DNA from: Patescibacteria group bacterium
GTDB lineage: Bacteria > Patescibacteriota > Minisyncoccia > Minisyncoccales > GWA2-38-27
Length of the DNA stretch: 64,000 bases
Direction: 5' to 3'
Assembly: GCA_020148045.1 (NCBI GenBank)
Contig: JAHCRG010000003.1
Span: 34,087-98,086 of the forward strand
The position numbers and the translations under genes were made by a program. The notes under the pieces were generated by a model, which saw only the letters and a list, made by a program, of their open reading frames with translations, was not told the origin of the DNA and made no database searches. Positions 2,898 to 54,465 of the stretch are shown piece after piece. Position 1 is the first letter of the stretch. The number at the start of each line of letters is the position of its first letter.

Positions 2898-3554
2898 ATG
2901 ATTGACTTTGTTAATTTTTTACATGAAGTAGGAAAACTAAGAAGAATACCAAGAAGAGGTTGGGTTTTAATTGGGGTGAAGAAGGATCCTGCCAGTGTTA
3001 CTGATCATAGTTTTCGATTGGCAATTATGGCCTGGATTTTGGGAAAGAAAAAAAGATTAAATCTTGAAAGAGCTATTAAGATGGCCTTAATTCATGATCT
3101 TTGCGAGCTATATGCTGGAGATATAACTCCTTATGATCACAAGTCATTACCTAAAAATAAAAAAGAATGGCCTAAATTGTTTGACTCTTGGCCAAGATTT
3201 ACAAAGTCTAAAAAACTTAAAAATTTTCTTAAAAAACATAAAAAAGAGAAAATCGCTTTAACAAAAATTACTTCAGGATTGCCTTTAGAATTAAAAAAAG
3301 AGATTTTAAATCTTTGGTATGATTATGAAAAAGGATCCACAAAAGAGGCGCGATTCGTTAGGCAGGTAAATAGATTAGAAACTCTTTTGCAGGCGTTTGA
3401 ATATAGTAAAGAAACTAAAAAACGCCCTTTTCATTCTTGGTGGGTTGGGACAGAAGAACAAATAGACGACCCCTTTTTAGTAAAGTTTATGGAAAAGATA
3501 GCTGAAAAGTTTTATCGTAGACCGAGAAAGAAAACTAAAAAGACAAGAAAATGA
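2898..3554 (+). CDS. HD-domain 5'-deoxynucleotidase (YfbR-like)
   Basis: HSFRLAIMAW…LIHDLCELYAGDITP matches the YfbR HD hydrolase motifs. Confidence 0.7.
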   Translation: MIDFVNFLHEVGKLRRIPRRGWVLIGVKKDPASVTDHSFRLAIMAWILGKKKRLNLERAIKMALIHDLCELYAGDITPYDHKSLPKNKKEWPKLFDSWPRFTKSKKLKNFLKKHKKEKIALTKITSGLPLELKKEILNLWYDYEKGSTKEARFVRQVNRLETLLQAFEYSKETKKRPFHSWWVGTEEQIDDPFLVKFMEKIAEKFYRRPRKKTKKTRK

Positions 3555-4297
3555 ACAAAGGTAAAATATATATCGGTACTTCTGGGTGGGTTTATCGCCA
3601 CTGGGAAAATATTTTCTATCCAGAAAGCCTGTCTTCAAAAGATAAACTAAAATACTTTTCTCAACATCTTAAAACAACTGAAGTAAACTATTCTTTTTAT
3701 CGTCTGCCAAGACCGAGTACTTATCAAAATTGGTACTCCCAAACGCCGGGAGATTTTTTATTTACTGTAAAGGCAAGTCGTTTCATTACCCATATTAAGA
3801 GATTGAAAGATGTTAAGGAGCCCTGGAAAATATTTATTAAAAATGCTCTGAATCTTAAAGAAAAGCTCGGCCCAATTTTATTTCAATTCCCTCCTTCTTT
3901 TAAAGCAACTGAAGAAAATATAAAAAGATTAGAAGAATTTTTAAAGTTTATTCGCAAAAATAACAAAAAATTACGATTTGCTTTTGAGTTTCGTCATAAA
4001 ACCTGGTGCGAAGAGAAAATTTACAAACTTTTAAAAAAACATAGAGTTGCTTGGGTAATTGCTGATTCTCCTTCTTTCCCCAGAGCTGAAAAAATAACTG
4101 CTGATTTTGTCTATATCAGAATGCACGGGTCTAAAGTTTTATTCTCTTCAAAATATACAAAAAAGGAATTAAAGGATTTAGCTGAAAAAATCAAAAAGTG
4201 GAAGAGAAATAAAGATGTCTTTGTCTATTTCAACAACGATGCCCACGGCCACGCAATTGAGAATGCCAAAACCTTAAGAGGATTTTTAGGTAAATAG
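3551..4297 (+). CDS. DUF72 (YecE-like) family protein
   Basis: N-terminal IYIGTSGWVYRHWENIFYP is the DUF72 signature. Confidence 0.7.
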   Translation: MNKGKIYIGTSGWVYRHWENIFYPESLSSKDKLKYFSQHLKTTEVNYSFYRLPRPSTYQNWYSQTPGDFLFTVKASRFITHIKRLKDVKEPWKIFIKNALNLKEKLGPILFQFPPSFKATEENIKRLEEFLKFIRKNNKKLRFAFEFRHKTWCEEKIYKLLKKHRVAWVIADSPSFPRAEKITADFVYIRMHGSKVLFSSKYTKKELKDLAEKIKKWKRNKDVFVYFNNDAHGHAIENAKTLRGFLGK

Positions 4298-4319: not shown

Positions 4320-5321
4320 ATGAAAAAGGTTTTGGTTTTTTTGTTTTCTTTTGTAATCGGGTTGGGTCTTTTTTTCTTAGTTATTGAGCGGGTTGGGTGG
4401 GAAGAGATAAAAGAAATTCTTTTCACTTTTTCTGGCTGGAAGGGAATAGCTATTTTAGGAATAACATTGCTAATTTGGTTAGTTGGAATTTGGAAATATA
4501 AATTTATTTTTAAATCTCAGGGATATAATTTTTCAGCTTGGAGTTTAGGAGAAATTTTATTTGCTAGCTTCACTATTACTTATTTATTTCCAACCACTTA
4601 CTTTGGAGGAGAGGTCTTTAAATTTTACGCTATTAAGAAAAAATTTTCTCTACCCTGGAAGAAAAATCTGGCTGCAATTGCTATTGAAAAATTAGTTAGC
4701 TTAAGTATTCTTTTATTATTTTTAGTTGTTGGAGCAGTGTCTTTTCTTTTATTAAGTAACTCGCTCTTAAAAAATTTCGGGATAATAACTTTAGTTCTTA
4801 TCGGAGCTTTAGCTATCGGAGTGACTATTTTTTATTTCAAAAGTTTTAAAAAAGAAAGCATTTTAAAATGGTTTTTTAGATTTTTTGGAATAGAAAACAA
4901 AAAGAACCATTTAGTTGGAGATATTGAAAAAGAAATCTTTCTTTTTTTCGATTTTAGAAAAATTCTAATGTGGAAAGGTTTGGGAATTGCTTTTTTAAGA
5001 TATCTTTTGGTTCTAATTCGCTGTTGGTTCCTGCTTTTCTTTTTAAAAGGAGAAATAAATATTTTTATTTCCTTGGCAATATTTTCTTTCTTCTATTTAT
5101 CTTATCTCTTTCCTTTCCCAGCCCGACTAGGAAGTTCAGAGGCAGCTCAGGTTTTTGCTTTTGGTTGTTTAGGATTGGGAACAGCTACTGGGATTACTTT
5201 TAGTTTTATTTTAAGGGGGGCAGAAATTTTAATTGCCCTTTTAGGACTTATATTTTTAGTAAAACTGGGAATAAAATTTTTCCTCAAGAGCAAGTTAAAA
5301 AAGTTGCCCCATAACCTTTAA
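4320..5321 (+). CDS. polytopic membrane protein (flippase-like / UPF0104-type)
   Basis: Eight or more hydrophobic segments and a KK-rich N-terminus; no soluble domain. Confidence 0.35.
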   Translation: MKKVLVFLFSFVIGLGLFFLVIERVGWEEIKEILFTFSGWKGIAILGITLLIWLVGIWKYKFIFKSQGYNFSAWSLGEILFASFTITYLFPTTYFGGEVFKFYAIKKKFSLPWKKNLAAIAIEKLVSLSILLLFLVVGAVSFLLLSNSLLKNFGIITLVLIGALAIGVTIFYFKSFKKESILKWFFRFFGIENKKNHLVGDIEKEIFLFFDFRKILMWKGLGIAFLRYLLVLIRCWFLLFFLKGEINIFISLAIFSFFYLSYLFPFPARLGSSEAAQVFAFGCLGLGTATGITFSFILRGAEILIALLGLIFLVKLGIKFFLKSKLKKLPHNL

Positions 5322-5338: not shown

Positions 5339-5743
5339 ATGAGATTTTCTCTAAAAACAAAAGGATTTAATGATATTATTGATATTACAGACGAGATTTC
5401 AGGGGCAGTAGAGAAAGCAGGAAAAGAAGAGGGGATATGTTTGATATCTTGTCCTGGTTCAACCTGCGGGATTACTACAATTGAATATGAAAAGGGAGTG
5501 ATTGAAGATTTGAAAAGGGCTTTAGAAAAAATAGCTCCAATGAATAAAGATTACGAGCATTGTAAAAAATGGGGTGATTGTAATGGTTACGCCCATATCA
5601 GGTCAGCCTTAATTCAACCATTTTTAGCAGTGCCAGTTGAAGATGAAAAATTAGCTTTGGGCACGTGGCAACAAATTATTTTCTTGGATTTTGACAATAG
5701 ACCGAGAGAAAGAGAGGTAATTGTTAAAGTGATTGGTAATTAG
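5339..5743 (+). CDS. YjbQ/UPF0047 family (secondary thiamine-phosphate synthase-like)
   Basis: ICLISCPGSTCGITTIEYE…GTWQQIIFLDFD…REVIVKVIG is the conserved UPF0047 pattern. Confidence 0.7.
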   Translation: MRFSLKTKGFNDIIDITDEISGAVEKAGKEEGICLISCPGSTCGITTIEYEKGVIEDLKRALEKIAPMNKDYEHCKKWGDCNGYAHIRSALIQPFLAVPVEDEKLALGTWQQIIFLDFDNRPREREVIVKVIGN

Positions 5744-5748
5744 TAAAT

Positions 5749-6384
5749 ATGCTTAAGTCTATCAACAAAGTTATAAAAGTTTTGATACTCGGTGATTTCT
5801 TTATGAATTCTGCCTGGGGTTTGTTTGCTCCTGTTTTCGCTTTATTTATTGCCCAGAATATTACCATCGGAAGTACGGCAGAAGCAGCTGAAGTTGCGGG
5901 TCTTGCCACTCTTTTCTATTGGGGTACAAGATCTCTTTTACAAATTCCAATTGGCCGGTATCTTGATAAGAATCATGGAGAGAAAGATGATTTCTGGTTT
6001 ATGGTTATAGGAATATTTTTAACTGCTTTGCCTCCATTTGGCTTTCTTATTTCTTTTTTACCTTGGCATATTTATGGTTTTCAAGTATTACATGCAATCG
6101 GTATGGCAATGTTTGTTCCCTCTATTTTAGCTATTTTTACTCGCCATATTGATAGAGGCAAAGAGGCTTTTGAATGGGGAGTGAAAAGTACTTCTCTTGG
6201 TTTTGGTATAGGAGTTACCGGAGCTATTGGCGGAGCTATAGCTGCTTTTCTTGGTTTTAAGCCCCTTTTTATTTTAGCCGGAGCTATAAATATGATAGCT
6301 GTTTTTATCTTTTTATTTATTCGCAAAAGAATATTTTCTAAAGACCACGTTGTGTATAAAATTCCTTCTCCAGAATCTTTTTAG
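5749..6384 (+). CDS. 6-TM half-size MFS-like transporter, paralog A
   Basis: Six TM segments and an MFS motif-A-like loop IGRYLDKNHGEKDD; tandem paralog of the next gene. Confidence 0.45.
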   Translation: MLKSINKVIKVLILGDFFMNSAWGLFAPVFALFIAQNITIGSTAEAAEVAGLATLFYWGTRSLLQIPIGRYLDKNHGEKDDFWFMVIGIFLTALPPFGFLISFLPWHIYGFQVLHAIGMAMFVPSILAIFTRHIDRGKEAFEWGVKSTSLGFGIGVTGAIGGAIAAFLGFKPLFILAGAINMIAVFIFLFIRKRIFSKDHVVYKIPSPESF

Positions 6385-6409
6385 AAATTAAGATTTATCA
6401 ATTAAATCT

Positions 6410-7030
6410 ATGTTTAAAACTCTTAACAAAGTTGTAAAAGTAATGGTTTTTTCTGATTTGGTTTTGAATTCTGGCTGGGGCTTGGTTGGCCCAATTTTAG
6501 CTATTTATATTGTAGGAAGCATTCAGGGAGGAAACGTTAAAGTGGCTGGAATTGCTATGGGAGTTTACTGGTTGGGCAAATCAATTCTCCAAATACCATT
6601 TTCTCATTATTTAGACGAGAATCATGGAGAGAAAGACGATTATTATGCCTTATTTGGAGGAACTCTTCTGGCTAGCCTTACTCCGATTGGCTTTATTTTT
6701 GCCACATTGCCCTGGCATATATATGTTCTCCAAGGAGTCCATGCCGTAGGTATGGCTCTGGCTATTCCTTCTTGGTCAGCTATTTTCACTCGCCATATTG
6801 AGAAAAAAAGAGAGGCCTTTTGCTGGGGCTTAGACAGTTCTGCTATTGGGCTTGGAGCGGGAGTAGCTGCAATTTTAGGAGGAGCAATAGCTGAGATTTT
6901 CGGATTTATTCCTCTTTTTATTGGGGTGAGCGCTTTTGGAATAGTAGCTTCCTTTTTGTTTTTACTAATTAGAAAAGAAATTTTGCCGAAAGTGCCAGAA
7001 GAAAGAGTATTCCCAATGCCAAAACCATGA
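6410..7030 (+). CDS. 6-TM half-size MFS-like transporter, paralog B
   Basis: About 45% identical to the preceding ORF, with the same loop motif (HYLDENHGEKDD). Confidence 0.45.
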   Translation: MFKTLNKVVKVMVFSDLVLNSGWGLVGPILAIYIVGSIQGGNVKVAGIAMGVYWLGKSILQIPFSHYLDENHGEKDDYYALFGGTLLASLTPIGFIFATLPWHIYVLQGVHAVGMALAIPSWSAIFTRHIEKKREAFCWGLDSSAIGLGAGVAAILGGAIAEIFGFIPLFIGVSAFGIVASFLFLLIRKEILPKVPEERVFPMPKP

Positions 7031-11031: not shown

Positions 11032-11379
11032 TTATTTTTTTACCTCTTCTACGATCTTTTCAAAGATGTTGGGATTGTTTTTTGCGAGGTCGGCTAAGAT
11101 TTTTCTATCAAGTTCAATCTTTTTTTCTTTTAGTTCGTGGATAAAACGACTGTAGGATAAACCCTGCTTTCTACAGGCAGAATTTATTTGAATTTGCCAG
11201 AGTTTTCTAAATTCCCTTTTTTTGACCCTTCTATCTCGATAAGCATATTTCCAGGCATGCATTAATGCCTCTTTTGCTGCTTTGTACTTTGATTTTCTTC
11301 CCCAACGAAAACCTTTAGTATGTTTTAATACTTTTTTTCTTCTTTTGTGTGCAGCTTTTCCTCTTTTTACACGAACCAT
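11032..11379 (-). CDS. rplT: 50S ribosomal protein L20
   Basis: MVRVKRGKAAHKRRKKVLKHTKGFRWGRKSKYKAAKEALMHAW… is a canonical L20. Confidence 0.9.
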   Translation of the reverse strand: MVRVKRGKAAHKRRKKVLKHTKGFRWGRKSKYKAAKEALMHAWKYAYRDRRVKKREFRKLWQIQINSACRKQGLSYSRFIHELKEKKIELDRKILADLAKNNPNIFEKIVEEVKK

Positions 11380-11575: not shown

Positions 11576-12085
11576 CTATTTTTTGGAAATAATCATTGTT
11601 AATCCTCTTGGTTGTCTTTTTAATTCTCTTTCAATTTTTATTGGAATTGACTTTTCTAATGCCTCAAGAAATTTTTTTATTTTTTCTTTAGCAAAATCTT
11701 GATGTGCTTTTTCTCTTCCTCTCAATTTCATCTCTATTCTAACCTTATATCCTGACTTTAAAAATTTTTCTGTTTGTCTGACTCTTGTTTCTAAATCGTG
11801 TTCAGAAATTCCAAAAGTTAATCTTATTCCTTTAAGTAAGCTTATCCGGTGATCTTTAGCTGATTTTTCTTTCTTTTTCAGTTGATAAAGATATTTTCCA
11901 TAGTCCATTAGTTTACAAACAGGCGGCTCAACTTTTTCTGTAACCTGGATTAAATCGAAACCGCGCTCCCTTGCTATTTGGAGCGCTTTTGTTAATACCA
12001 AAACTCCCAGTTGTTTTCCAGCTTCATCAATCACCCTTACTTCTCTGGCCCTTATTCGATTGTTGACTAATGGTTTTCTTTGCAC
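11576..12085 (-). CDS. infC: translation initiation factor IF-3 (GTG start)
   Basis: N- and C-domain motifs (IRAREVRVIDEAGKQLGVL…); upstream of rpmI-rplT. Confidence 0.85.
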   Translation of the reverse strand: MQRKPLVNNRIRAREVRVIDEAGKQLGVLVLTKALQIARERGFDLIQVTEKVEPPVCKLMDYGKYLYQLKKKEKSAKDHRISLLKGIRLTFGISEHDLETRVRQTEKFLKSGYKVRIEMKLRGREKAHQDFAKEKIKKFLEALEKSIPIKIERELKRQPRGLTMIISKK

Positions 12086-12086
12086 T

Positions 12087-12425
12087 GTGGAGATGGCGAG
12101 GGTGAACTCGCGTCCAAAAGTTTTGCCAAAATAGTTCTACAGATTTAGTCTGTTTTAATTTTCAGATACCAAGCAAGAAACAGACAAAATCTTAGTATCT
12201 TATCCTCGTTTGTTTCAATAATTCCCTTGAGGAAGAAAATTATCTATCTCGCGATTATAACGCCAAAGATTGCTTAGCGAGAATCAGTAATCCCGACGGC
12301 GTTAAGCAAATGCTAACGCAGGTTTCTTAAATAAGTTAGCACTTATTTTTTCTGGAAGTTTTACCAGATTCCAAGCTGGAACTGCTTTATCCTGACAAAA
12401 ACTTCTGTCAAAACTTTTCATCCCC
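12087..12425 (-). ncRNA. ssrA: tmRNA (SsrA); predicted tag peptide ANLFKKPALAFA
   Basis: Minus-strand transcript begins GGGGAUGAAAAG… and ends …GGACGCGAGUUCACCCUCGCCAUCUCCAC. The 5' GGGGAUG pairs with 3' CAUCUCC to form the acceptor stem, and a T-arm GCGAG-UUCACCC-CUCGC is present. An internal ORF GCU AAC UUA UUU AAG AAA CCU GCG UUA GCA UUU GCU UAA is present. The gene lies immediately downstream of smpB. Confidence 0.75.
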
Positions 12426-12867
12426 GTGATTTTAATTCTCTTTTTAATTCTCTTTCTGCTTCTCGTTTTTTAATTAGCTCTCTTTTGTCAGCTTTTTTTC
12501 TTCCTTTAGCTATTCCAAATTCAAGCTTAATTTTACCTCTCTTAGTATACACTCTTAAGGGTATTAAAGTCAAGCCCTTTTGTTTTGTTTTCCCGATTAA
12601 ATGTTTAATTTCTAACTTATTCAAAAGAAGTTTTCTTGACTTTTCTGGTTCATAATCTTTAGGAGCGTTTTTTGGTTGATAAGGAGGGATATTAGCTCCG
12701 ATTAAATACGGTTCCTCTCCCTTTAGAACCACATAAGAACCTTTTAAGCTCATCCTCCCTGATTTTATTGACTTTACTTCCTGTCCAATCAAAACCATGC
12801 CTGCTTCAAATTTCTCCAGGATTTCATAGTCAAACCTCGCTTTTCTATTTTCCGCAAGAACCTTCAT
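12418..12867 (-). CDS. smpB: SsrA-binding protein SmpB
   Basis: MKVLAENRKARFDYEILEKFEAGMVLIGQEVKSIKSGRMSLKGSYV… is a canonical SmpB. Confidence 0.9.
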   Translation of the reverse strand: MKVLAENRKARFDYEILEKFEAGMVLIGQEVKSIKSGRMSLKGSYVVLKGEEPYLIGANIPPYQPKNAPKDYEPEKSRKLLLNKLEIKHLIGKTKQKGLTLIPLRVYTKRGKIKLEFGIAKGRKKADKRELIKKREAERELKRELKSRG

Positions 12868-17882: not shown

Positions 17883-18896
17883 ATGCTTATTCTTTGGATT
17901 GTTATTTTTATCGCAAGTTTAGCTGTATTGGTAAAATCAGCTGATTGGGTTGTTGAAAGCTCAGAAAAAATTGGTCTGGCTTTAAAACTTTCACCTTTTA
18001 TTGTTGGAGTAACTATTGTTGCTATTGGTACATCTTTTCCGGAACTGGCAACAACTTTAATTGCTACTTTTAAAGGAAATACTGAATTTGTTGTTGATAC
18101 TGCTTTTGGTTCTAATATCGCCACTATTCTTTTGATTGTTGGTTTGGCAACAGTAGTAGGTCGTAAACTCATAGTCAAAAGAAGCTTGATTGATTTAGAC
18201 GCTCCTTTATTTGCAGTAAGTACAGTTTTAATTCTTTTTATGGCTTTGGATAGAAAAATAGTTTTCTGGGAAGGGGTTTTACTTATACTGGGTTTTATAG
18301 TTTATTTTTTGTATACGATTTTTCAACGAGGAAATGGAGAAGAAGAAACCCCAGAAGCGGTTGAGGTTTTGCCTTTGCGGCCAGAAAGAAGAGAAGCAAG
18401 AATTCAAAGGGAAATTAAAGAGGAAAAGAAAAAAATAGTAGAGGCAAAATTAAGCTTTAAAATTTTCCTTTTTCTGACTTTAGGAATAGCTGGCTTGGTT
18501 ATTGGGTCTAACTATATAGTGGAATCGGTTTCAAGCTTATCAGAGCTTTTGAAAATCAACGCTTCTTTTATCACTATCACCGCGGTAGCTGTGGGTACTT
18601 CTTTGCCAGAGCTGGTTGTTTCAGTTGGGGCTGCTCTCAAGAAAAAATATGAGCTTGCTTTGGGAAATGTTTTTGGTTCAAATGTTTTTACCATATTTTT
18701 AGTTATAGGTCTGCCGGCTCTTATTAAGCCGTTAGCAATTAACGAGACTACCTTCTCGGTTGGTCTTCCTTATTTAGTTGTTGCTACTTTACTTTTTGTA
18801 GTTTCGGGAATTTCCAGAAGAATTCATATCTGGGAGGGACTAATGTATATTTTAATTTTTGTCTTATTTATAGCCCAGTTTTTTGGTCTATTTTAA
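17883..18896 (+). CDS. Na+/Ca2+ exchanger (CaCA, YrbG-like)
   Basis: Two alpha-repeats GTSFPELATT / GTSLPELVVS. Confidence 0.75.
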   Translation: MLILWIVIFIASLAVLVKSADWVVESSEKIGLALKLSPFIVGVTIVAIGTSFPELATTLIATFKGNTEFVVDTAFGSNIATILLIVGLATVVGRKLIVKRSLIDLDAPLFAVSTVLILFMALDRKIVFWEGVLLILGFIVYFLYTIFQRGNGEEETPEAVEVLPLRPERREARIQREIKEEKKKIVEAKLSFKIFLFLTLGIAGLVIGSNYIVESVSSLSELLKINASFITITAVAVGTSLPELVVSVGAALKKKYELALGNVFGSNVFTIFLVIGLPALIKPLAINETTFSVGLPYLVVATLLFVVSGISRRIHIWEGLMYILIFVLFIAQFFGLF

Positions 18897-18952
18897 GATT
18901 ATATATTTATACATTAGCGAAACAAGGTTCTGACGGAGTCAGGTTCTTATTT
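18894..18952 (+). promoter_or_regulatory. conserved promoter/leader motif copy A (AAGAYTATATATTTATA…TTAGCGAAnCAAGGTTCTGA-hairpin-GGTTCTTATTTT)
   Basis: Near-identical to 52251..52323 upstream of nrdD. The hairpin sequences differ (CTGAC-gga-GTCAG vs GAAACGC-gaga-GCGTTTC) but both retain pairing. Confidence 0.5.
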
Positions 18953-18995
18953 TAGAAAGGTCGTAAAAATTAGCGATTAAGTTTTTAATACCACT

Positions 18996-19292
18996 ATGGG
19001 ACTTTTTGATAAAAAACAATCAATTTCAAGGAGCAGATTTAGGTCTGCTCTTAGAAAAACCACATTGCCAAAACCAAGAACCGGTGGCAGGAGATACGCC
19101 CGAGGAGAACGGATAGGTTTTGAAAAGGAATTATTTCACCGCAAATACGGACGGCAGATTTCTAAAAAAGAGTATGGAACTGTTCTTGAGAAAATGAGGA
19201 GAAGTAAAATTAGAGCAAAAGGTACGGCTGAAAAATTGGAGATTCAGAGAAAGGTTGATTTTTTAAAAAGATTAGGAGGGGTAAAGAAGTGA
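18996..19292 (+). CDS. hypothetical basic protein (98 aa)
   Basis: Lys/Arg-rich ORF, no recognisable motif; preceded by leader motif copy A. Confidence 0.3.
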   Translation: MGLFDKKQSISRSRFRSALRKTTLPKPRTGGRRYARGERIGFEKELFHRKYGRQISKKEYGTVLEKMRRSKIRAKGTAEKLEIQRKVDFLKRLGGVKK

Positions 19293-19314: not shown

Positions 19315-20040
19315 ATGGCGGTCCACTATAGAACTCAAGGTTTTGTATTAAAAAAAACTGATTTGCGGGAAGCAGACCAAGTTTTTTCTATTTATACTCA
19401 AGATTTTGGCAAGTTGGAGATTTTAGGAAAAGCAATCAGAAAGATAAAATCAAAGCTAAGGTTAGGAGCTGAACTTTTTTATTTATCAGAAACTGAATTT
19501 ATTCAAGGAAAAACCTATAAAACCTTAACTGATGCAATAGTAATTGATAAGTTTAAAAATATAAGGAGTGATTTGGAAAGATTAAAGATTGCCTATCAAA
19601 TTGCTGAAACCGCAGATAATTTAATCAGTGGTCAAGAAAAAGACGAAAAGATTTGGAATTTATTAAATGAAGTATTTGATAAGTTGGAGAACTATGAATT
19701 AAGAATTAAGAATTATGGATTGATTTATTTGTATTTTATTTGGAACTTGCTTTCAATTTTGGGGTATCAGATTGACCTTTATAATTGCGCTGTTTGTCAG
19801 AAAAAATTAGTTCCTCAAAAACTTTACTTTAACCCGGAAGAAGGAGGGACAATTGATTTGGAATGTTTTAAAAAGATAGAAAAAGGAGAGGAGGTTTCTC
19901 CAGAGTTAGTGAAGATATTACGGCTTTTACTAAAAAAGGATTGGAACATTTTATCAAGATTAAAAATTCAAGATTTACATAAAAAAGAATTAGAAAATAT
20001 TTCTGAAAATTATATTTCTTTTTACAAACAAGGAGCTTAG
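19315..20040 (+). CDS. recO: DNA repair protein RecO
   Basis: N-terminal OB fold (YRTQGFVLKKTDLREADQVFSIYTQDFGKLEI) and C-terminal zinc motif CAVCQKK…C. Confidence 0.75.
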   Translation: MAVHYRTQGFVLKKTDLREADQVFSIYTQDFGKLEILGKAIRKIKSKLRLGAELFYLSETEFIQGKTYKTLTDAIVIDKFKNIRSDLERLKIAYQIAETADNLISGQEKDEKIWNLLNEVFDKLENYELRIKNYGLIYLYFIWNLLSILGYQIDLYNCAVCQKKLVPQKLYFNPEEGGTIDLECFKKIEKGEEVSPELVKILRLLLKKDWNILSRLKIQDLHKKELENISENYISFYKQGA

Positions 20041-33091: not shown

Positions 33092-35551
33092 ATGGAGAAA
33101 TATAATCCGAGGAAAATTGAGAAAAAGTGGCAGAAGAGGTGGGAGGAATTGGATGTTTTTCGGGCTTTTGATAGGTCAAAAAAGCCAAAGTTTTATGTTT
33201 TAGTTGAGTTTCCTTATCCTTCTGGTGAAGGCCTTCATGTTGGTCATTGCAGAGGCTACGTTGCTATGGATGTTTTGGCTCGGAAAAGAAGAATGCAAGG
33301 TTTTAATGTTTTATTTCCCATGGGCTGGGATGCTTTTGGTTTGCCAACAGAAAACTATGCTATCAAAACCGGAATTCATCCGGCAATCGCCACTAAAAAA
33401 AATACAGCTGTTTTTAAACGCCAGCAGAAAAACTTAGGCCTTTCTTTTGATTGGAGCAGAGAGATTAATACTACTGACCCTTTTTATTATAAATGGACTC
33501 AATGGATATTTGTCCAATTATTTAAAAAGGGCTTAACTTACAAAGCAAAAATGCCCATTAACTGGTGCCCGAGTTGCAAGATTGGCTTGGCTAACGAGGA
33601 GGTAGTTGACGGCAAGTGTGAACGGTGCGGGGAGAAAGTAGTCAGAAAAGAAAAAGGGCAGTGGATGCTGAAGATTACCAAATATGCTGAGAGATTAATT
33701 CAAGATTTAGATAAGGTTGATTATCCAGAAAGAGTTAAGATTTCCCAAAAAGAATGGATAGGCAAGTCAGAGGGAGTAGAAGTTGAATTCAAAATTCAAA
33801 ACCAACCCTCCGGGGAGTCTCTCACTTCGTTCAATCCAGCAAAATTCAAAATTCCCGTCTTTACTACTAGGACAGACACCTTGTTTGGATGTACCTATTT
33901 AGTATTAGCACCGGAATATCCATTAATTGAAGAACTTAAAGATAAAATTACAAATTATAAACAGGTTAAAGATTATATTGAAAAATCAAAAAAGAAAATA
34001 GAGAAAGAGAGAACTACCGAAGATAAGGAAAAAACTGGTATAAAACTTAGAGGCGTTAAAGCTATAAATCCGGTTAATAACAGGGAAATTCCTATTTTTG
34101 TGGCAGATTATGTGCTAATGCATTATGGAACCGGGGCAATTATGGCAGTGCCAGCTCACGACCAGCGTGACTTTGATTTTGCTAAACGCTATAATCTTCC
34201 CATAATTGAGGTCATCAAACCCAAAAATGCCAAACCCAGAGTTTTAGATAGAGCTTATGAAGGAGAAGGTATTTTAATCGACTCGGGACGTTTCACTGGA
34301 ATGAGATCAGAAGATGCCAGAGGGAGGATGGGCCAGTGGTTAGCTAAAAAGGATTTAGCTAAAAAAGCAGTTCACTACAAACTAAGAGATTGGATTTTTT
34401 CCAGACAGCGATACTGGGGTGAGCCAATACCAATGGTAAAATGTGAGAAGTGTGGCTGGCAGCCGGTGCTGGAAGACGATCTACCAGTTAAATTGCCCAG
34501 AGTTAAGGAATACAAGCCAACTGAAAAAGGTGAGTCACCTTTGGCAAAAGTTAAAAATTGGGTGAATACTAAATGTCCTAAATGTGGGGACCCAGGGCAA
34601 AGAGAAACTGACGTGATGCCAAATTGGGCCGGTTCTAATTGGTATTATCTTCGTTATTGTGATCCTCAAAATGAGAGGAAATTAGCTGACCCAAAGTTGC
34701 TGAAACACTGGATGCCGGTGGATTGGTATAATGGCGGTATGGAACACGTTACTTTGCATTTATTGTATTCTCGTTTTATTTACAAATTTTTATGGGATAT
34801 TAAAGCTGTGCCAAAATCTATTGGTTCAGAACCTTATAAAAGACGAACTTCTCATGGGATAGTTCTCGGGGAAGGAGGAATTAAAATGTCAAAATCAAAA
34901 GGCAATGTGATTAATCCCGAAAAGGTTGTAAAAGAACACGGAGCTGATACTATGAGAGTTTATGAAATGTTTATGGGCCCTTTTGAGCAGATGATTCCCT
35001 GGGATACAAAAGGAGTAAAAGGAGTAAGAAGGTTTTTGGAGAAAGTTTGGAAATTGCAATATAAAGTTGGCCAAAAATTAGGCGATGGCCCTGGGTTGGA
35101 AAGATTAGTTCACAAGACAATTAAAAAAGTAGGGGAGGATATTGAGAGCTTGAAATATAATACAGCGGTTTCTGCTTTAATGGTTTTAACTAACAAAATG
35201 GGTAGCTATAAAGAGATTTCTCTGAATTATTATTCATTACTCTTGATTCTTTTGTGCCCTTTTGCTCCGCATATTACAGAAGAGCTCTGGTATAGAGCAA
35301 AGATTAAAGGATTATGCTGTAATCAAGAATGGCTTAAGTATAATCCGAAATTAATTAAAGAAAAGAAAGTAATTTTAGTTATTCAGATTAATGGTAAAAT
35401 TCGTGGTAAAATAGAAGTCGAAGCTGGTATATCTGAAAAGAAAGCAAAAGAGCTTGCCTTAATCCAAGAAAAAATAATAAAATGGACAAAAGGCAAGAAA
35501 ATTAAAAAGACAATATTTGTCCCTGGAAAATTAATTAATTTTGTAGTATGA
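33092..35551 (+). CDS. leuS: leucyl-tRNA synthetase
   Basis: YPSGEGLHVGHCRGY (HIGH), KMSKSKGN, CP1 editing domain; 819 aa. Confidence 0.9.
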   Translation: MEKYNPRKIEKKWQKRWEELDVFRAFDRSKKPKFYVLVEFPYPSGEGLHVGHCRGYVAMDVLARKRRMQGFNVLFPMGWDAFGLPTENYAIKTGIHPAIATKKNTAVFKRQQKNLGLSFDWSREINTTDPFYYKWTQWIFVQLFKKGLTYKAKMPINWCPSCKIGLANEEVVDGKCERCGEKVVRKEKGQWMLKITKYAERLIQDLDKVDYPERVKISQKEWIGKSEGVEVEFKIQNQPSGESLTSFNPAKFKIPVFTTRTDTLFGCTYLVLAPEYPLIEELKDKITNYKQVKDYIEKSKKKIEKERTTEDKEKTGIKLRGVKAINPVNNREIPIFVADYVLMHYGTGAIMAVPAHDQRDFDFAKRYNLPIIEVIKPKNAKPRVLDRAYEGEGILIDSGRFTGMRSEDARGRMGQWLAKKDLAKKAVHYKLRDWIFSRQRYWGEPIPMVKCEKCGWQPVLEDDLPVKLPRVKEYKPTEKGESPLAKVKNWVNTKCPKCGDPGQRETDVMPNWAGSNWYYLRYCDPQNERKLADPKLLKHWMPVDWYNGGMEHVTLHLLYSRFIYKFLWDIKAVPKSIGSEPYKRRTSHGIVLGEGGIKMSKSKGNVINPEKVVKEHGADTMRVYEMFMGPFEQMIPWDTKGVKGVRRFLEKVWKLQYKVGQKLGDGPGLERLVHKTIKKVGEDIESLKYNTAVSALMVLTNKMGSYKEISLNYYSLLLILLCPFAPHITEELWYRAKIKGLCCNQEWLKYNPKLIKEKKVILVIQINGKIRGKIEVEAGISEKKAKELALIQEKIIKWTKGKKIKKTIFVPGKLINFVV

Positions 35552-39961: not shown

Positions 39962-39982
39962 AGCAATTATCTCAATAATAAA

Positions 39983-40012
39983 AAAATGCCTCGCGAACGA
40001 GGCATTTATTTT
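39983..40012. terminator. bidirectional terminator AATGCCTCGCGAACGAGGCATTTATTTTT
   Basis: 9-bp perfect stem, with an A-run upstream and a T-run downstream. Confidence 0.6.
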
Positions 40013-42775: not shown

Positions 42776-43642
42776 TTAACGCCGTAAGGCATAAATATTT
42801 CTTCCTAAGTTTCTCACTTTTCCTTTTATTTCTAAAACACTAAGAGTACTGGCTACAATGGTTGCCTTTAATTTTGTTTTTTCAATGATTTTATCAATAT
42901 ACAAGGATTCTTCTTTTAGAGTATTTAAAATCAGATTTTCTTCAAGAGTTTGGTTGTCATACCCGTCCACCTCGCCTCGCGAAGCGAGGTGGGCGGGTAA
43001 ATTTAATTCTTGCAAGATGTCATCAGCTTTGTCAAGGAGCTTAGCTCCTTTTTTTATCAGGATGTGGGGGCCTCGAGAGTTTAAAGCATAAATTGGGCCT
43101 GGCACGGCAAATACCTTTCTTTTTTGAGAAAAAGCAAAATTAGCAGTAATTAAAGCCCCGCTTTTTTCTTTAGCTTCAATTACTAATGTTCCCAAAGAAA
43201 GACCTGAGATTATTCGATTTCTGTCAGGGAAAGTGAAGCGAGTACCTCTTGTTCCCGGAGGATATTCTGAAATTAAAAGGCCTCCTGAATCAACAATTTT
43301 TCTGGCTAATTTAATATTTTCTTTTGGATAGATGCTTTTTTCATCAAGACCGGTGCCAAGAACAGCAATTGTTCTTCTTCCTTGCTCAACTACTGCTGTG
43401 TGGGCAAAAGTATCAATTCCCGGAGCTAAACCACTAACAATAGTAAGTCCAGATTCAGCTAAGTTACCTGCAATTTCCAGGGCTACTTGCTTTCCATAAG
43501 AAGAGCATCTCCTTGTGCCGACCACGGCGAAACATAATTCATCTGGTTTAATTTCGCCTTTAAAATAGAGAATTTTCGGTGCTTTTTTGATTCTTTTAAG
43601 CTGTTCTGGATAATCCTTGTCTTCTATTGTTATTTTTTCCAT
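42776..43642 (-). CDS. dprA: DNA processing protein DprA (Smf)
   Basis: Rossmann-like core FAVVGTRRCSSYGKQVALEIAGNLAESGLTIVSGLAPGIDTFAH. Confidence 0.8.
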   Translation of the reverse strand: MEKITIEDKDYPEQLKRIKKAPKILYFKGEIKPDELCFAVVGTRRCSSYGKQVALEIAGNLAESGLTIVSGLAPGIDTFAHTAVVEQGRRTIAVLGTGLDEKSIYPKENIKLARKIVDSGGLLISEYPPGTRGTRFTFPDRNRIISGLSLGTLVIEAKEKSGALITANFAFSQKRKVFAVPGPIYALNSRGPHILIKKGAKLLDKADDILQELNLPAHLASRGEVDGYDNQTLEENLILNTLKEESLYIDKIIEKTKLKATIVASTLSVLEIKGKVRNLGRNIYALRR

Positions 43643-43832
43643 TCTTAAATCATAACATTAACCTCTAACGGGGTAAAATAAAAAAAACTTGAAATTCTTT
43701 TAATTCTTTGGTATTATATAAGAACCTGCTCGCTTTGCCCGCAGAACCTTGATTCGCTATTGTATGATTATTTAATCTTGAATTAAAATTACAAAGCACA
43801 TTGACAAATTATAAAGAAAGGAGAAGGCGGCA

Positions 43833-44429
43833 ATGAAAGACGCTAAAAAAAGAGTAAAAAGGTTTATTATAGGCGGGGCCAGTTTTTTAAAGAGGGAAAA
43901 AAGAGTTATTGATACAGAACAGATCAAGTCAACTCTTCCTCATACGGGAAGAATGCTTCTTTTGGACCGAGCTATATTCACTCGCAAGAAAATTATTGGT
44001 GAACTTTTAATGAGACCAGAAATCTGCGCGGGACATGAAATTGGCGGAAAGCCAATCACTAGAGGAATGGAGTTTGGAGACATGGCAGCTCAGCTTTTGG
44101 GAGTTTGGTTAGTCCAACAAACAGATGAGTATCCTAAACTTAATGGTAAATTAGCTCCTTTTAGAGAAGCTCATATCAAGTCTCTTGGTCCTGTTTTTCC
44201 TGGTGATTTTGTAACTTTAGAGATACCTGTAAGAGAAGCTGAAGAAAATGAGCCAGAAAAGAAGAATCCTAAAATTGTAGTCCTCGAAGATGAGGCTAGA
44301 CCGGAACGTTCAATCCGACGAGCAGTTGCAGTAGATGGTGAAGTTTGGGTGAGGGGCCAGAAGCAGAAAAAGGCAGTAATTTATTTTGTTGAATTGAATA
44401 TCGTTGGTGCCGAAAGCTTAGCTAAATGA
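43833..44429 (+). CDS. FabZ/FabA-like hotdog-fold dehydratase homolog (orphan)
   Basis: LPHTGRMLLLDRA (cf. FabZ LPHRYPFLLVDRV) and CAGHEIGGKPITRG (cf. GHFPGKPIMPG); GC-rich; promoter TTGAAA-17-TATTAT upstream. Confidence 0.5.
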   Translation: MKDAKKRVKRFIIGGASFLKREKRVIDTEQIKSTLPHTGRMLLLDRAIFTRKKIIGELLMRPEICAGHEIGGKPITRGMEFGDMAAQLLGVWLVQQTDEYPKLNGKLAPFREAHIKSLGPVFPGDFVTLEIPVREAEENEPEKKNPKIVVLEDEARPERSIRRAVAVDGEVWVRGQKQKKAVIYFVELNIVGAESLAK

Positions 44430-52185: not shown

Positions 52186-52220
52186 TGGTTTCTAACGGGG
52201 CTTGACCCGTTTTTTTTATG
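52186..52220 (+). terminator. intrinsic terminator after ftsZ (AACGGGGcttgaCCCGTT + T8)
   Basis: Hairpin plus TTTTTTTT. Confidence 0.6.
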
Positions 52221-52250
52221 AGTTAAAATAGAATAATTGATTTTTAATTC

Positions 52251-52323
52251 AAGACTATATATTTATATACCTTAGCGAATCAAGGTTCTGAAACGCGAGA
52301 GCGTTTCATGGTTCTTATTTTTT
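52251..52323 (+). promoter_or_regulatory. conserved promoter/leader motif copy B, immediately upstream of nrdD
   Basis: See copy A at 18894..18952. Confidence 0.5.
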
Positions 52324-54465
52324 ATGAAAAATAGAATTACCAAAGTTCACCTTCCAAAATTTTCCAAAAGAAAAATTACGAAGGTAAAAAAAAGGGATGA
52401 GACGATTGTAGATTTTGAGCAAGAAAAAATTACTGATGCTATTTTTAAAGCCATAACTGCAACTGGTCAGGGCGATGGGAAAAGGTCAAAAAAACTTTCA
52501 GATAGGGTGGTTAAATTTTTAAATCGTCGCTTTAAAAAAGATGAAATTCCTCAAGTAGAACAGATTCAGGACATTGTTGAGGAAGTTTTAATTTTGGATG
52601 GCTTAGTTGAGACCGCCCGAGCATATATTCTATACCGTGAGCAAAGAAGAAGAATCCGCGAGGCAGTAGCAGTTGTTGATGAGTCAAGCGAAAGGATTGA
52701 TAAATATTTGCAAGAACTTGATTGGCAGGTTTACGAAAACGCTAATATGACTTTTTCTTTGCAGGGTTTGAATCAATATGCAATTACAGATATTTCTAAG
52801 AAATATTGGTTAAACAAAATTTATCCTAAAGAGATAAGAGAAGCGGCTCTTAACGAAGATTTCCATATCCATGATTTAGAAAGTATTAGTACATATTGTA
52901 TGGGTTGGGATCTTTATGATTTACTAAAGAGAGGATTTAGAGGGGTGTCAGGAAAACTGGAATGCCGTCCAGCAAAACATTTCAGAACAGCTTTAGGTCA
53001 GTTGGTAAATTTCTTCTATACAGTCCAAGGTGAGTCGGCAGGTGCGCAAGCTGTTTCTAATTTTGATACACTCCTTGCTCCTTTTATCCGTTATGATGGT
53101 TTAAGCTACCCTCAGGTTAAACAAGCAATGCAGGAATTTTTATATAATTGTATGGTGCCCACTCGAGTTGGTTTCCAGACCCCTTTCTTAAATGTAACTC
53201 TTGATATTAAGCCACCCTCTTTTCTGGCTAAGCAGCCAGTAATTATTGGAGGCGAGCCCCAAAAAGAGACCTATGGCGAGTTTCAGGAAGAGATGGATAT
53301 GTTTATTCGGACTTTTTACGAAGAATTAATGGAAGGTGATGCTAAAGGAAGACCTTTTACATTTCCTATTCCAACAGTTTCCATAACTAAAGATTTTGAT
53401 TGGGATAATCCGGCTCTAAATCCTTTGTGGGAGGCAACCGCAAAGTACGGGGTTAATTATTTCCAGAATTTCATTCAATCAGATATGCGTCCAGAGGATT
53501 TCCGTTCGATGTGTTGCCGGCTTCGTTTGTCAAAGAAAGAACTCTATATGAGAGGAGGAGGATTGTTTGGATCACAGCCCTTAACAGGAAGCTTGGGTGT
53601 AGTAACTATAAATCTGTCCCGGATTGGTTATCTTTCTAAAACCAAAAAAGAGTTTTTTGAAAGATTAGAGAATCTAATGGACTTAGCTAAAGAGAGTTTG
53701 GAAATTAAGAGGAAAGCTTTAGATAATTTTATGGAAAAAGGCCTCTATCCTTATTCAAAATTTTATTTAGCTTCGGTTAAAAAAATACGAAATTCTTACC
53801 TTGGAAACCACTTTTCAACTATTGGGTTAATAGGGATGAATGAAGCTCTTTTGAATTTTATTGGAGAGGATGTAGGTTCTCGTCGGGGAAAAAGGTTTGC
53901 TTTTGAACTTTTGGATTTTATGCGGGAAAGATTAATTAAATATCAGGAGGAAACCGGGAATTTATATAATCTTGAAGCTACTCCTGGCGAGGGGACGAGC
54001 TATCGTCAGGCAAAAGCTGACAAAGACGAATATCCGGATATTGTTACTGCCGGTACAAAAGAAGCACCGTATTATACAAACTCCTCTCAACTGCCGGTTA
54101 ACTATACTGATGATATTTTTGATGCCTTAAAACTCCAAGATGAACTTCAATGTAAATATACAGGAGGCACAGTTCTCCATATATTTTTGGGCGAAAGGAT
54201 TCATGATTCCCAGATGGCTAAAAATTTAGTTAAAAAAGTTTTTGAGAATTTCCATTTACCTTATATTACTTTGACCCCAACCTTTTCAATCTGTCCTAGT
54301 CATGGTTATTTGACTGGAGAACACTTTTATTGCCCGAAATGCACAATCAAGCAGCCTTGCGAGGTTTATTCAAGAATTGTGGGGTACATTCGTCCCGTGT
54401 CCCAATGGCATATTGGCAAGCGCCGGGAATTTAAAGAGAGGAAAGAGTTTAAAATAAAAGTATAA
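52324..54465 (+). CDS. nrdD: anaerobic ribonucleoside-triphosphate reductase (class III)
   Basis: ATP-cone N-terminus, CCRLRL thiyl region, C-terminal C4 zinc (CPSHG…CPKC) and glycyl-radical motif RIVGY. Confidence 0.85.
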   Translation: MKNRITKVHLPKFSKRKITKVKKRDETIVDFEQEKITDAIFKAITATGQGDGKRSKKLSDRVVKFLNRRFKKDEIPQVEQIQDIVEEVLILDGLVETARAYILYREQRRRIREAVAVVDESSERIDKYLQELDWQVYENANMTFSLQGLNQYAITDISKKYWLNKIYPKEIREAALNEDFHIHDLESISTYCMGWDLYDLLKRGFRGVSGKLECRPAKHFRTALGQLVNFFYTVQGESAGAQAVSNFDTLLAPFIRYDGLSYPQVKQAMQEFLYNCMVPTRVGFQTPFLNVTLDIKPPSFLAKQPVIIGGEPQKETYGEFQEEMDMFIRTFYEELMEGDAKGRPFTFPIPTVSITKDFDWDNPALNPLWEATAKYGVNYFQNFIQSDMRPEDFRSMCCRLRLSKKELYMRGGGLFGSQPLTGSLGVVTINLSRIGYLSKTKKEFFERLENLMDLAKESLEIKRKALDNFMEKGLYPYSKFYLASVKKIRNSYLGNHFSTIGLIGMNEALLNFIGEDVGSRRGKRFAFELLDFMRERLIKYQEETGNLYNLEATPGEGTSYRQAKADKDEYPDIVTAGTKEAPYYTNSSQLPVNYTDDIFDALKLQDELQCKYTGGTVLHIFLGERIHDSQMAKNLVKKVFENFHLPYITLTPTFSICPSHGYLTGEHFYCPKCTIKQPCEVYSRIVGYIRPVSQWHIGKRREFKERKEFKIKV

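Follow-up and report, generated by a model that had tools for sequence, protein, structure and literature searches.

Two segments of the 64,000-nucleotide stretch analysed here (the window; positions 34,087 to 98,086 of contig JAHCRG010000003.1, from the Patescibacteria group bacterium assembly GCA_020148045.1) share several identical strings around hairpins of different sequence, and the question raised by this locus is what kind of element would be built in this way. One segment, copy A, lies between a Na/Ca-exchanger gene and an open reading frame (ORF) upstream of recO; the other, copy B, directly precedes nrdD. A first-pass annotation read the pair as a promoter/hairpin leader of about 60 nt shared by nrdD and the ORF upstream of recO. 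We consider it probable, at roughly 0.6, that both are instead members of an interspersed, and probably mobile, family of promoter/terminator cassettes of the Nealsonbacteria/Minisyncoccales. To our knowledge the promoters, terminators and translation starts of the Candidate Phyla Radiation (CPR) bacteria, whose genomes are tiny and gene-dense, are almost without experimental description; a 65-bp unit that is used dozens of times per genome, and is near letter-perfect in around 45 species-level genomes, would offer a testable model of gene starts and gene boundaries.

Throughout, the F strand (or F orientation) is the strand on which the first-pass annotation read the cassette, and the promoter described below is on the opposite strand. 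Copies A and B agree exactly in the shared strings: TTAGCGAANCAAGGTTCTGA is found at 18914-18933 and 52272-52291, where 0.02 matches were expected by chance in a search of the window, the AT-rich block AAGAYTATATATTTATA occurs at 18895 and 52251, and GGTTCTTATTTT at 18942 and 52310. That copies A and B exist and are alike far beyond chance is therefore clear. A match to TTAGCGAANCAAGGTTCTGA with two mismatches, at 43741-43760 on the minus strand, revealed a third copy (copy C) which had been missed. Aligned similarity covers 18886-18953 for copy A, 52244-52321 for copy B and 43719-43786 for copy C, slightly more than was first drawn for A and B. A covariance model run across the window returned exactly these three matches, with A (82 bits) and B (76 bits) in F orientation on the plus strand and C (84 bits) in F orientation on the minus strand; the next best match scored 11 bits, and no degraded copies were found in the window with this model.

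The cassette was then sought in one genome per species using the pattern GCGAANCAAGGTTCT-N(6-36)-GGTTCT, which returned at least 120 loci. The family statistics given here are for copies among the matches listed by that scan, with genes called by a simple ORF caller. Around 20 of the matches listed are chance matches in other phyla; in around 100 the cassette is present, in some 45 metagenome-assembled genomes and often at several loci per assembly. These assemblies are labelled Nealsonbacteria, Minisyncoccales, Parcubacteria/Paceibacterota or Patescibacteria, and some carry the generic label "Saccharibacteria". The first-pass annotation had looked to further occurrences as a check, and among the matches listed there are about 100 more copies. 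The whole unit common to these loci is TTAATTCAAGATTATAT..TATACCTTAGCGAATC-AAGGTTCT-(variable hairpin)-AGGTTCTTA, with a length of approximately 65-85 bp; read on the opposite strand it becomes TAA-GAACC-(hairpin)-AGAACC-TTGATT-(16 nt)-TATAAT-CTTGAAT-TAA. In the listed loci the covariance model gives about 120 full-length matches of 62-95 bits, and the conserved box never occurs without the hairpin and the second GGTTCT. Units are mostly solitary, or stand in head-to-tail arrays of 2-5 with a period of 60-69 and no spacers, and a single genome (JAUWYA01) has eight different hairpins. A phage vector for the family was considered and rejected, as both of the pattern matches on viral contigs fail the covariance model, leaving no family members there. 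A literature search for the cassette sequence string returned a single, unrelated paper on apple.

The genes that adjoin the cassette do not form a functional set. Fifty downstream proteins in the listed loci match 75 Pfam families with no common function, and include ribosomal proteins L6, L14, S19 and S10, release factor 1 (RF-1), phosphoglycerate kinase (PGK), CTP synthase, a proton-pumping pyrophosphatase (H+-PPase), NusG and pilus/secretion proteins. Such heterogeneity means that the cassette is not a regulator specific to ribonucleotide reductase, and with at least 75 Pfam families adjoining it, ribosomal proteins among them, the proposed restriction to nrdD and the ORF upstream of recO does not hold. 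What the sites do share is their arrangement. Among 78 with both neighbours called, both genes are co-directional with the promoter in 51, both are opposed to it in 12, and the neighbours are convergent in 9 and divergent in 6. In about half of the co-directional sites the TAA of the cassette is the stop codon of the upstream gene, and the downstream ATG is usually no more than 15 nt away.

A cis-regulatory leader specific to nrdD and the ORF upstream of recO, be it an NrdR site, an attenuator or a riboswitch, is largely refuted by these data, and we regard it as highly improbable. It would account for copy B abutting the nrdD start codon (the cassette does end 3 nt before the ATG) and for the cassettes in the same orientation that precede both nrdD, at a distance of 33 nt, and nrdG in locus L011; read-through of a terminator-like hairpin could also attenuate nrdD. 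Against this, locus L023, the closest relative in the set with an NrdD 87% identical to that of the window, has no cassette in its ftsZ-nrdD spacer and carries its nrdD-nrdG copy in the other orientation, and among the matches listed about 100 further copies stand beside unrelated genes. At the gathering threshold the only Rfam matches in the window are tmRNA and tRNA, and permissive searches with copy B and with the L034 array gave nothing near threshold among riboswitches, leaders, ribozymes or small RNAs (sRNAs).

NrdR sites are tandem 16-bp palindromic boxes set about three helical turns apart, with a consensus reportedly given by Rodionov and Gelfand in 2005. The cassette resembles them in having an AT-rich CTATATAT core just upstream of nrdD, the left half of which is similar to that consensus. 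Unlike NrdR boxes, it lacks a 16-bp palindrome and a partner box at about 31 bp, and its core is also found at unrelated genes; inspection of the cassette gave only a half-match, AGACTATATAT, with neither a palindrome nor, within 32 bp, a second box. The supposed NrdR-like core is the -10 element of the opposite-strand promoter. No NrdR gene was found among the 20 window ORFs scanned against Pfam.

The hairpins of copies A (CTGAC/GTCAG) and B (GAAACGC/GCGTTTC) had been noted to differ in sequence and yet to pair; both do fold, at -8.5 (z -2.4) and -14.4 kcal/mol (z -3.75) on the F strand, with -10.7 kcal/mol for copy C. The other strand gives -7.5 for A and -5.9 kcal/mol for C, the F strand being the more stable in all three window copies. 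The structure-level constraint that had been suspected is evident in the family. In a model-based alignment, 130 members have 97.2% of their cells paired compared to 87.1% when shuffled, the covariation score is 0.232 compared to 0.073, and double-sided changes occur in 94 cells where 31 were expected; none of 500 shuffles reached these values of pairing and covariation, and sliding the partner destroyed the signal. The 74 distinct hairpin cores have a mean minimum free energy of -7.5 kcal/mol on the F strand; the other strand gives -6.0 and shuffled sequences -2.9.

According to RNAalifold the stem continues into the conserved flanks, where AAGG.UCU pairs with AGG.UCUU, including two G.U pairs, and rare variants at these lower-stem positions mostly keep pairing. 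A lower stem is thus made by the conserved AAGGUUCU and AGGUUCUU; it encloses an upper stem that is variable and GC-rich, and UAUUU comes after it. Because these segments pair, the GGTTCT "direct repeats" which had been proposed as a regulator site are the two halves of the lower stem; their spacing, furthermore, ranges over 16-45 bp. In 105 of 107 copies the F strand gives the more stable extended stem (-11.0 vs -7.0 kcal/mol), and G.U pairs (20 vs 6) and purine-purine internal loops (tandem G.A) point to this strand as well. Thymine is enriched at the first three positions after GGTTCTTA, beyond the conserved TA (0.62-0.82 vs 0.36-0.47). A GC-rich stem-loop with a U-tract, as in an intrinsic terminator, is found on the F strand only, with the family tail GUUCUUAUUU after the upper stem; what follows the hairpin on the opposite strand, AGAACCUUGA, does not look like a terminator. 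A terminator scan flags copies A and B. Were the hairpin to terminate transcription, 3' ends would be expected after GGUUCUUAUUU on the F strand. A hammerhead-like core (CUGANGA...GAAA) was considered and rejected, as CUGA is present in some copies only, the GAAA arm is in none and there is no Rfam match.

A stem that folds better on the F strand, with a U-rich tail after it, is also what would be expected if the cassettes were sRNA genes. The AT-rich part would then serve as a promoter on the F strand too, and from each unit a 50-65-nt RNA would start near UUAGCGAAUC, a conserved single-stranded "seed", and run to its own terminator; it would be complementary to read-through transcripts of the opposite strand and could act in cis or in trans. 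A seed followed by a variable terminator is a layout typical of trans-acting sRNAs, the constraint on the conserved box exceeds what a -35 element would require, and 67 of 109 copies have a TATAAT-like hexamer (at least 5/6) on the F strand, the commonest position being with its end 9 nt before GCGAA. However, such hexamers arise easily in an AT-rich stretch, and the other 42 copies are without a good one; the conserved unit has no -35 element on the F strand, there is no Rfam family match, and the orientation bias follows the opposite-strand promoter. We therefore think it unlikely that the cassettes are sRNA genes.

The opposite strand of the cassette carries TTGACA-like and TATAAT-like hexamers, which in sigma-70 promoters stand 16-18 bp apart; they are near-consensus, and promoter activity is predicted on this basis. 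The first-pass annotation was right that the element is promoter-like; the good promoter is, however, on the strand opposite to the one that it assumed. The -35 element is TTGATT in 99 of 107 unique copies, although five of its six bases were fixed by the search pattern, which also fixed both GGTTCT motifs. The -10 element was left unconstrained, and is TATAAT in 59 copies, TATATT in 19 and TATAGT in 11 (89 of 94); variation is confined to position 5, with T1, A2 and T6 kept. Of 117 copies, 75 have a 16-nt spacer between the two elements and 108 a spacer of 15-19 nt.

In 19 single copies the ATG of a long ORF lies 6-12 nt after the -10 element, examples being the genes for L6 (MSRVGKKPI) and S19 (MARSLKKGP), and in 33 it lies within 28 nt. 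A distance of 6-12 nt implies a leaderless mRNA, and this placement, like the 51:12 orientation bias, lends indirect support to a transcription start downstream of the -10 element. Very few window genes have a Shine-Dalgarno-like sequence in the context of their start codon, and in 16 of 58 a TATAAT-like hexamer (at least 5/6) ends 4-11 nt before the start, with a peak at 6-9 nt that is about seven-fold over background. It is from these two features that leaderless mRNAs appear to be the rule in this genome, and the predicted cassette promoter would be of the genome's own type. Example starts of the putative leaderless type are at 2898, 4320, 5339, 20072, 22898, 44946 (minus strand), 45905 and 57044. 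A second recurrent motif, YTAACGGGG (reverse complement CCCCGTTAR), has six matches in the window where 0.55 were expected, at 5318, 22877, 43665, 48364 (minus strand), 48386 and 52192, of which 48364 and 48386 form an inverted pair. It sits inside the promoter spacers TTGCCC-17-TAAAAT/TAGAAT upstream of the genes at 5339 and 22898, and also in the ftsZ terminator.

The box around the -35 element could alternatively be the operator of a global transcription factor, with the cassette genes forming one regulon. AGAACCTTGATTCGC contains an imperfect inverted repeat, GAAC-CTTG-ATTC, which overlaps the -35; its GAAyC..GrTTC symmetry is readable in the sequence, it is one base from the Gram-positive LexA core GAAC-N4-GTTC, and the box is nearly invariant, beyond what a -35 requires. 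LexA proteins of Patescibacteria with unusual motifs are mentioned, by way of citations, in PMC7739468 and PMC8565304. The genes that would be driven are nevertheless housekeeping and heterogeneous, and do not make up a repair set; the distance to the second AGAACC changes from copy to copy (16-45 bp) and is unsuited to a fixed dimer or tetramer, and the 20 window ORFs scanned include no LexA or NrdR. An operator of this kind is accordingly quite improbable. Two related ideas failed owing to the same heterogeneity of downstream genes: a LexA/SOS box, suggested by dprA, recO and nrdD, which looked like a repair set, was rejected as the main explanation, and a competence regulon or cin-box-like alternative-sigma promoter, suggested by dprA and comEC, was dropped.

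Comparison of orthologous junctions shows that the cassette is present at some and absent from others. The nrdD-nrdG junction is empty in the window, filled with the promoter forward in L023, where ATAA flanks the cassette on both sides, and filled in the opposite orientation in L011; conversely, the ftsZ-nrdD spacer holds copy B in the window and no cassette in L023. Near recO, a cassette immediately follows ileS in L092, ahead of recO and in the orientation opposite to that of the window; L080 has none there. (In L092, at ~3260-3350, a heptamer microsatellite, (GTTATAA/GTTGTAA)n, lies between the cassette and the recO start.) At the infC-rpmI junction L052 carries a copy with its promoter 12 nt before the rpmI ATG, and the window has a 12-nt spacer; the window rpmI (L35; 11380-11575, minus strand) lies between infC (11576-12085) and rplT (11032-11379). 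In total, at least eight orthologous junctions hold a cassette in one genome and none in a relative whose flanks are 70-93% identical. A systematic search with the flanks gave the filled/empty pairs L081/L087, L027/L022, L034/L105, L051/L034, L045/L089 and L116, L007/L040 and L060/L108. In every such pair the cassette stands exactly between the first gene's stop codon and the ATG of the second, and in the empty genome the two overlap (TAATG) or are 4-12 nt apart.

These polymorphisms, together with the tandem arrays of 2-5 units, the occupation of nrdD-nrdG in opposite orientations (L011, L023) and the absence of degraded copies from the window, could also describe a selfish miniature mobile element of the REP/REPIN or IS200 type that moves as single-stranded DNA. 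The hairpin and GGTTCT would then be the recognition site of its enzyme, and the likeness to a promoter a passenger feature, tolerated or selected secondarily; a strand-specific hairpin with GAA, GNRA or GTTA loops and invariant flanks suits such a role, as do modules that recombine (hairpin-only tandem units, promoter-half fusions). In the alignment the ends, TAAGAACC... and ...CTTGAATTAA, do not form an inverted pair, so that the terminal inverted repeats of a miniature inverted-repeat transposable element are lacking. Nor is there a consistent target duplication: TAA is present at both ends of the consensus and the window/L023 pair fits a duplication of (A)TAA, but none of eight other pairs has a clean one. 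A transposase, RAYT or HUH gene did not come to light, no search aimed at one having been made, and the family has no members on viral contigs. Furthermore, a -10 element that varies only at position 5, and ATGs placed 6-12 nt beyond it, speak for selection on the promoter. A purely selfish element is for these reasons a doubtful explanation.

The hairpin half of the cassette is exchangeable. Hairpin-only tandem units exist, as do promoter halves joined to other hairpins, and the orthologous filled sites of L065 and L070 carry entirely different hairpins; it follows that modules are exchanged. A promoter half is fused to a different shared structured repeat, GGGATTAGTCCCGCACCGTGCCCCGAAGTAGAGCGAAGCTCACTTCGGGAC, at L010:4304-4394 and L079:3280-3362 and flanks; the L010 composite is in the ftsZ-nrdD spacer, with its promoter facing nrdD. 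A recurring unit, TAGACAATGGCTT-(hairpin)-ACAT(A/T)CAAGGTTCT, alternates in tandem with the GGTTCT hairpin in L012:4640-4860, L069:5246-5300 and L077, showing the hairpin module in combination with several partners. Very small GC-rich palindromes whose loops are GAA or GNRA (ATTGCGGC-GAA-GCCGCAAT, TGCAGC-GTGA-GCTGCA) are also inserted in the AT-rich half of some cassettes (L085:~2420-2450, L086:~3975-4000, L074:~6365-6400, L051:~1830-1860, L077:~1345-1370), as if small hairpins themselves spread.

The three window copies can now be described individually. Copy A overlaps the TAA stop codon (18894-18896) of the Na/Ca-exchanger gene (17883-18896, assigned by Pfam), and is followed after 43 nt by a 98-aa ORF (18996-19292) and then by recO (19315-20040). 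Its putative promoter (18898-18925, minus strand) has a weakened -35, TTGTTT (18920-18925), a 16-nt spacer and the -10 TATAAT (18898-18903), and is antisense into the exchanger gene; the F-strand hairpin (18924-18953, plus strand; terminator scan) is AAGG.UCUGAC-GGA-GUCAGG.UCUU followed by AUUUU.

Copy B lies between ftsZ and nrdD-nrdG-comEC, the nrdD ATG being at 52324. A promoter scan places its opposite-strand promoter at 52254-52283 (minus strand; -35 TTGATT at 52278-52283, 18-nt spacer, -10 TATAGT at 52254-52259), pointing back towards the ftsZ terminator, and a candidate nrdD promoter, TTGACC-16-TAAAAT, at 52202-52229 on the 5' side of the cassette. The F-strand hairpin (52282-52321, plus strand; terminator scan) consists of the lower stem AAGG/UCUU and GAAACGC-GAGA-GCGUUUC, and its U-rich tail runs into the nrdD start codon. 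With copy B between the candidate promoter and the ATG, nrdD transcripts must read through a terminator-like hairpin of -14 kcal/mol. This arrangement may have an attenuator-like effect on nrdD, though not one that is conserved among nrdD leaders.

Copy C precedes dprA (42776-43642, minus strand) and topA at a distance of 77 nt, with a 198-aa ORF (43833-44429, plus strand) on its other side (Pfam); with respect to these neighbours the site is classed as anti/co. Its putative promoter (43749-43776, plus strand) combines the -35 TTGATT (43749-43754) and a 16-nt spacer with a degenerate -10, TTTAAT (43771-43776), and faces the 198-aa ORF, which has an AGGAG ribosome-binding site. The F-strand hairpin (43720-43750, minus strand), AAGG.UCUGC-GG-GC-AAA-GC-GA-GCAGG.UCUU, has a 2x2 purine internal loop (GG opposite GA). 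Neither the 98-aa ORF beside copy A, which is very basic, nor the 198-aa ORF has a Pfam match; by eye, the latter has a hotdog-fold/FabZ-like LPH..P.LLLDR motif.

Several observations weigh against a promoter/terminator cassette. The commonest arrangement places the better-folding hairpin strand antisense to both flanking genes, so that a role in termination there requires an antisense or divergent transcript, which has to be assumed. Two of the three window copies, A and B, point their promoters antisense into the upstream gene, and the third has the degenerate -10. The promoter, the terminator and the leaderless starts are in all cases predictions from sequence. The hairpins of L065 and L070 are entirely different even though one flank of these sites is about 92% identical, and some of the "covariation" may consequently be the swapping of whole palindromic modules and not step-wise compensation. 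The near-invariance of CGCTAA and AGAACC exceeds the needs of a sigma-70 promoter or of a stem. The invariance of the -35 and GGTTCT is in part ascertainment, since the search pattern fixed five of six bases of the former and both copies of the latter. Finally, with no terminal inverted repeats, no clean target duplication and, in the absence of a search aimed at one, no transposase identified, mobility is inferred solely from presence and absence.

If the cassette is nevertheless what we propose, it could work as follows. The promoter half would fire away from the hairpin and start a leaderless or near-leaderless mRNA of the next gene, while the leading TAA would often end the preceding one. 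The F-strand hairpin would be a one-directional intrinsic terminator that stops transcription running back through the promoter, the targets being antisense or divergent transcripts, or a gene arriving from that side. By copying, the cassette would have spread to many stop/start junctions, including some inside ribosomal-protein operons, and copies would be retained chiefly at sites where promoter and flanking genes run in the same direction. Copy A, in the minority orientation, could then terminate the Na/Ca-exchanger gene by means of its hairpin and U-tail, leaving its promoter antisense; copy B would be an insertion into the 5' region of nrdD, and the promoter of copy C, with its weak -10, would face ORF 43833-44429.

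A bolder and rather unlikely version makes the cassette a self-spreading, ultra-conserved gene-junction module peculiar to a leaderless CPR lineage. It would insert at stop/start overlaps, those within ribosomal-protein operons included, and split coupled genes into separate leaderless units, with the invariant GGTTCT-hairpin-GGTTCT as the handle of a trans-acting partner, either a hairpin-specific DNA or RNA enzyme or a short divergent RNA, produced by all copies and complementary to all read-through transcripts. If true, this would amount to genome-wide coordinated control, or to mobility, by a mechanism not yet described. The promoter/terminator cassette would itself mean that streamlined genomes are not static, an actively turning-over repeat rewiring their operons, those for ribosomal proteins included. 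It may also be of practical use, as a ready-made native promoter/terminator part for the emerging genetics of Patescibacteria, and it is a caution for annotation that a 5' sequence shared by two genes may be a generic cassette and not the mark of a common regulator.

Two other features of the window were noted in passing. Adjacent half-length MFS_1 ORFs at 5749-6384 and 6410-7030 (211 and 206 aa) may be a split or frameshifted transporter, or a two-part one. A tmRNA gene (12085-12425, minus strand; 134 bits) lies directly downstream of smpB (12418-12867, minus strand) and slightly overlaps it.

Among known systems the cassette is closest in kind to promoter-bearing interspersed repeats and putative mobile promoters, the Correia elements of Neisseria, ERIC and REPIN being examples (PMC3575422). 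The definition of putative mobile promoters used there asks for 80% identity or more across 50 nt or more, in sequence that lies upstream of unrelated genes both in one genome and in different ones, and the cassette falls within this operational definition. Like them, it is a short, near-identical, non-coding intergenic unit upstream of unrelated genes, with promoter elements and variation in presence and absence. Unlike Correia elements it has no terminal inverted repeats or TA duplication, and unlike REPIN it is not an inverted REP doublet, with no RAYT gene seen. It also differs from mobile promoters in its exact placement at the stop/start junction, where it supplies both a stop codon and a predicted leaderless start; in the coupling of its promoter to an oppositely directed terminator-like hairpin with sequence-invariant flanks; and in its host, a CPR lineage with a genome of about 1 Mb.

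The hairpin half resembles intrinsic terminators in its GC-rich F-strand stem, its GNRA, GAA or GTTA loop, its A-rich 5' shoulder AAUCAAGG and its U-rich 3' tail UUCUUAUUU. Unlike them, its stem is flanked by sequence that is invariant across species, and it mostly faces against the flanking genes; ordinary terminators of the window (52194-52219, and ~39975-40012, a weak match to the model) are without the GGTTCT flanks.

With REP, BIME and REPIN sequences (see PMC8049555), which are mobilised by IS200/IS605-like RAYT enzymes that recognise single-strand hairpins, the cassette has in common that they are short intergenic hairpin repeats of strand-specific structure, with conserved bases beside the stem; many lie at the ends of genes, and they endure as populations of sequences. 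In the cassette it is the stem that is hypervariable within a genome and the flanks that are fixed, the reverse of REPs. It has no GTAG-type 5' tetranucleotide, is solitary or in direct tandem, and contains a full predicted promoter; the conserved stems and inverted doublets of a REP/REPIN-RAYT system are lacking, and no RAYT was seen among the proteins, which were searched non-exhaustively. The 60-69-nt periodicity of the arrays also brought CRISPR and TIGR arrays to mind, which likewise consist of tandem short repeats with hairpin potential in Patescibacteria genomes. TIGR units are of 36 nt, with two alternating 8-12-nt repeats and 9-nt spacers, lie beside a Nop-domain gene and occur in CPR genomes (PMC12045711). 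An array of either type was rejected, as cassette units are 60-85 nt long, abut without spacers, are mostly solitary and stand beside housekeeping genes.

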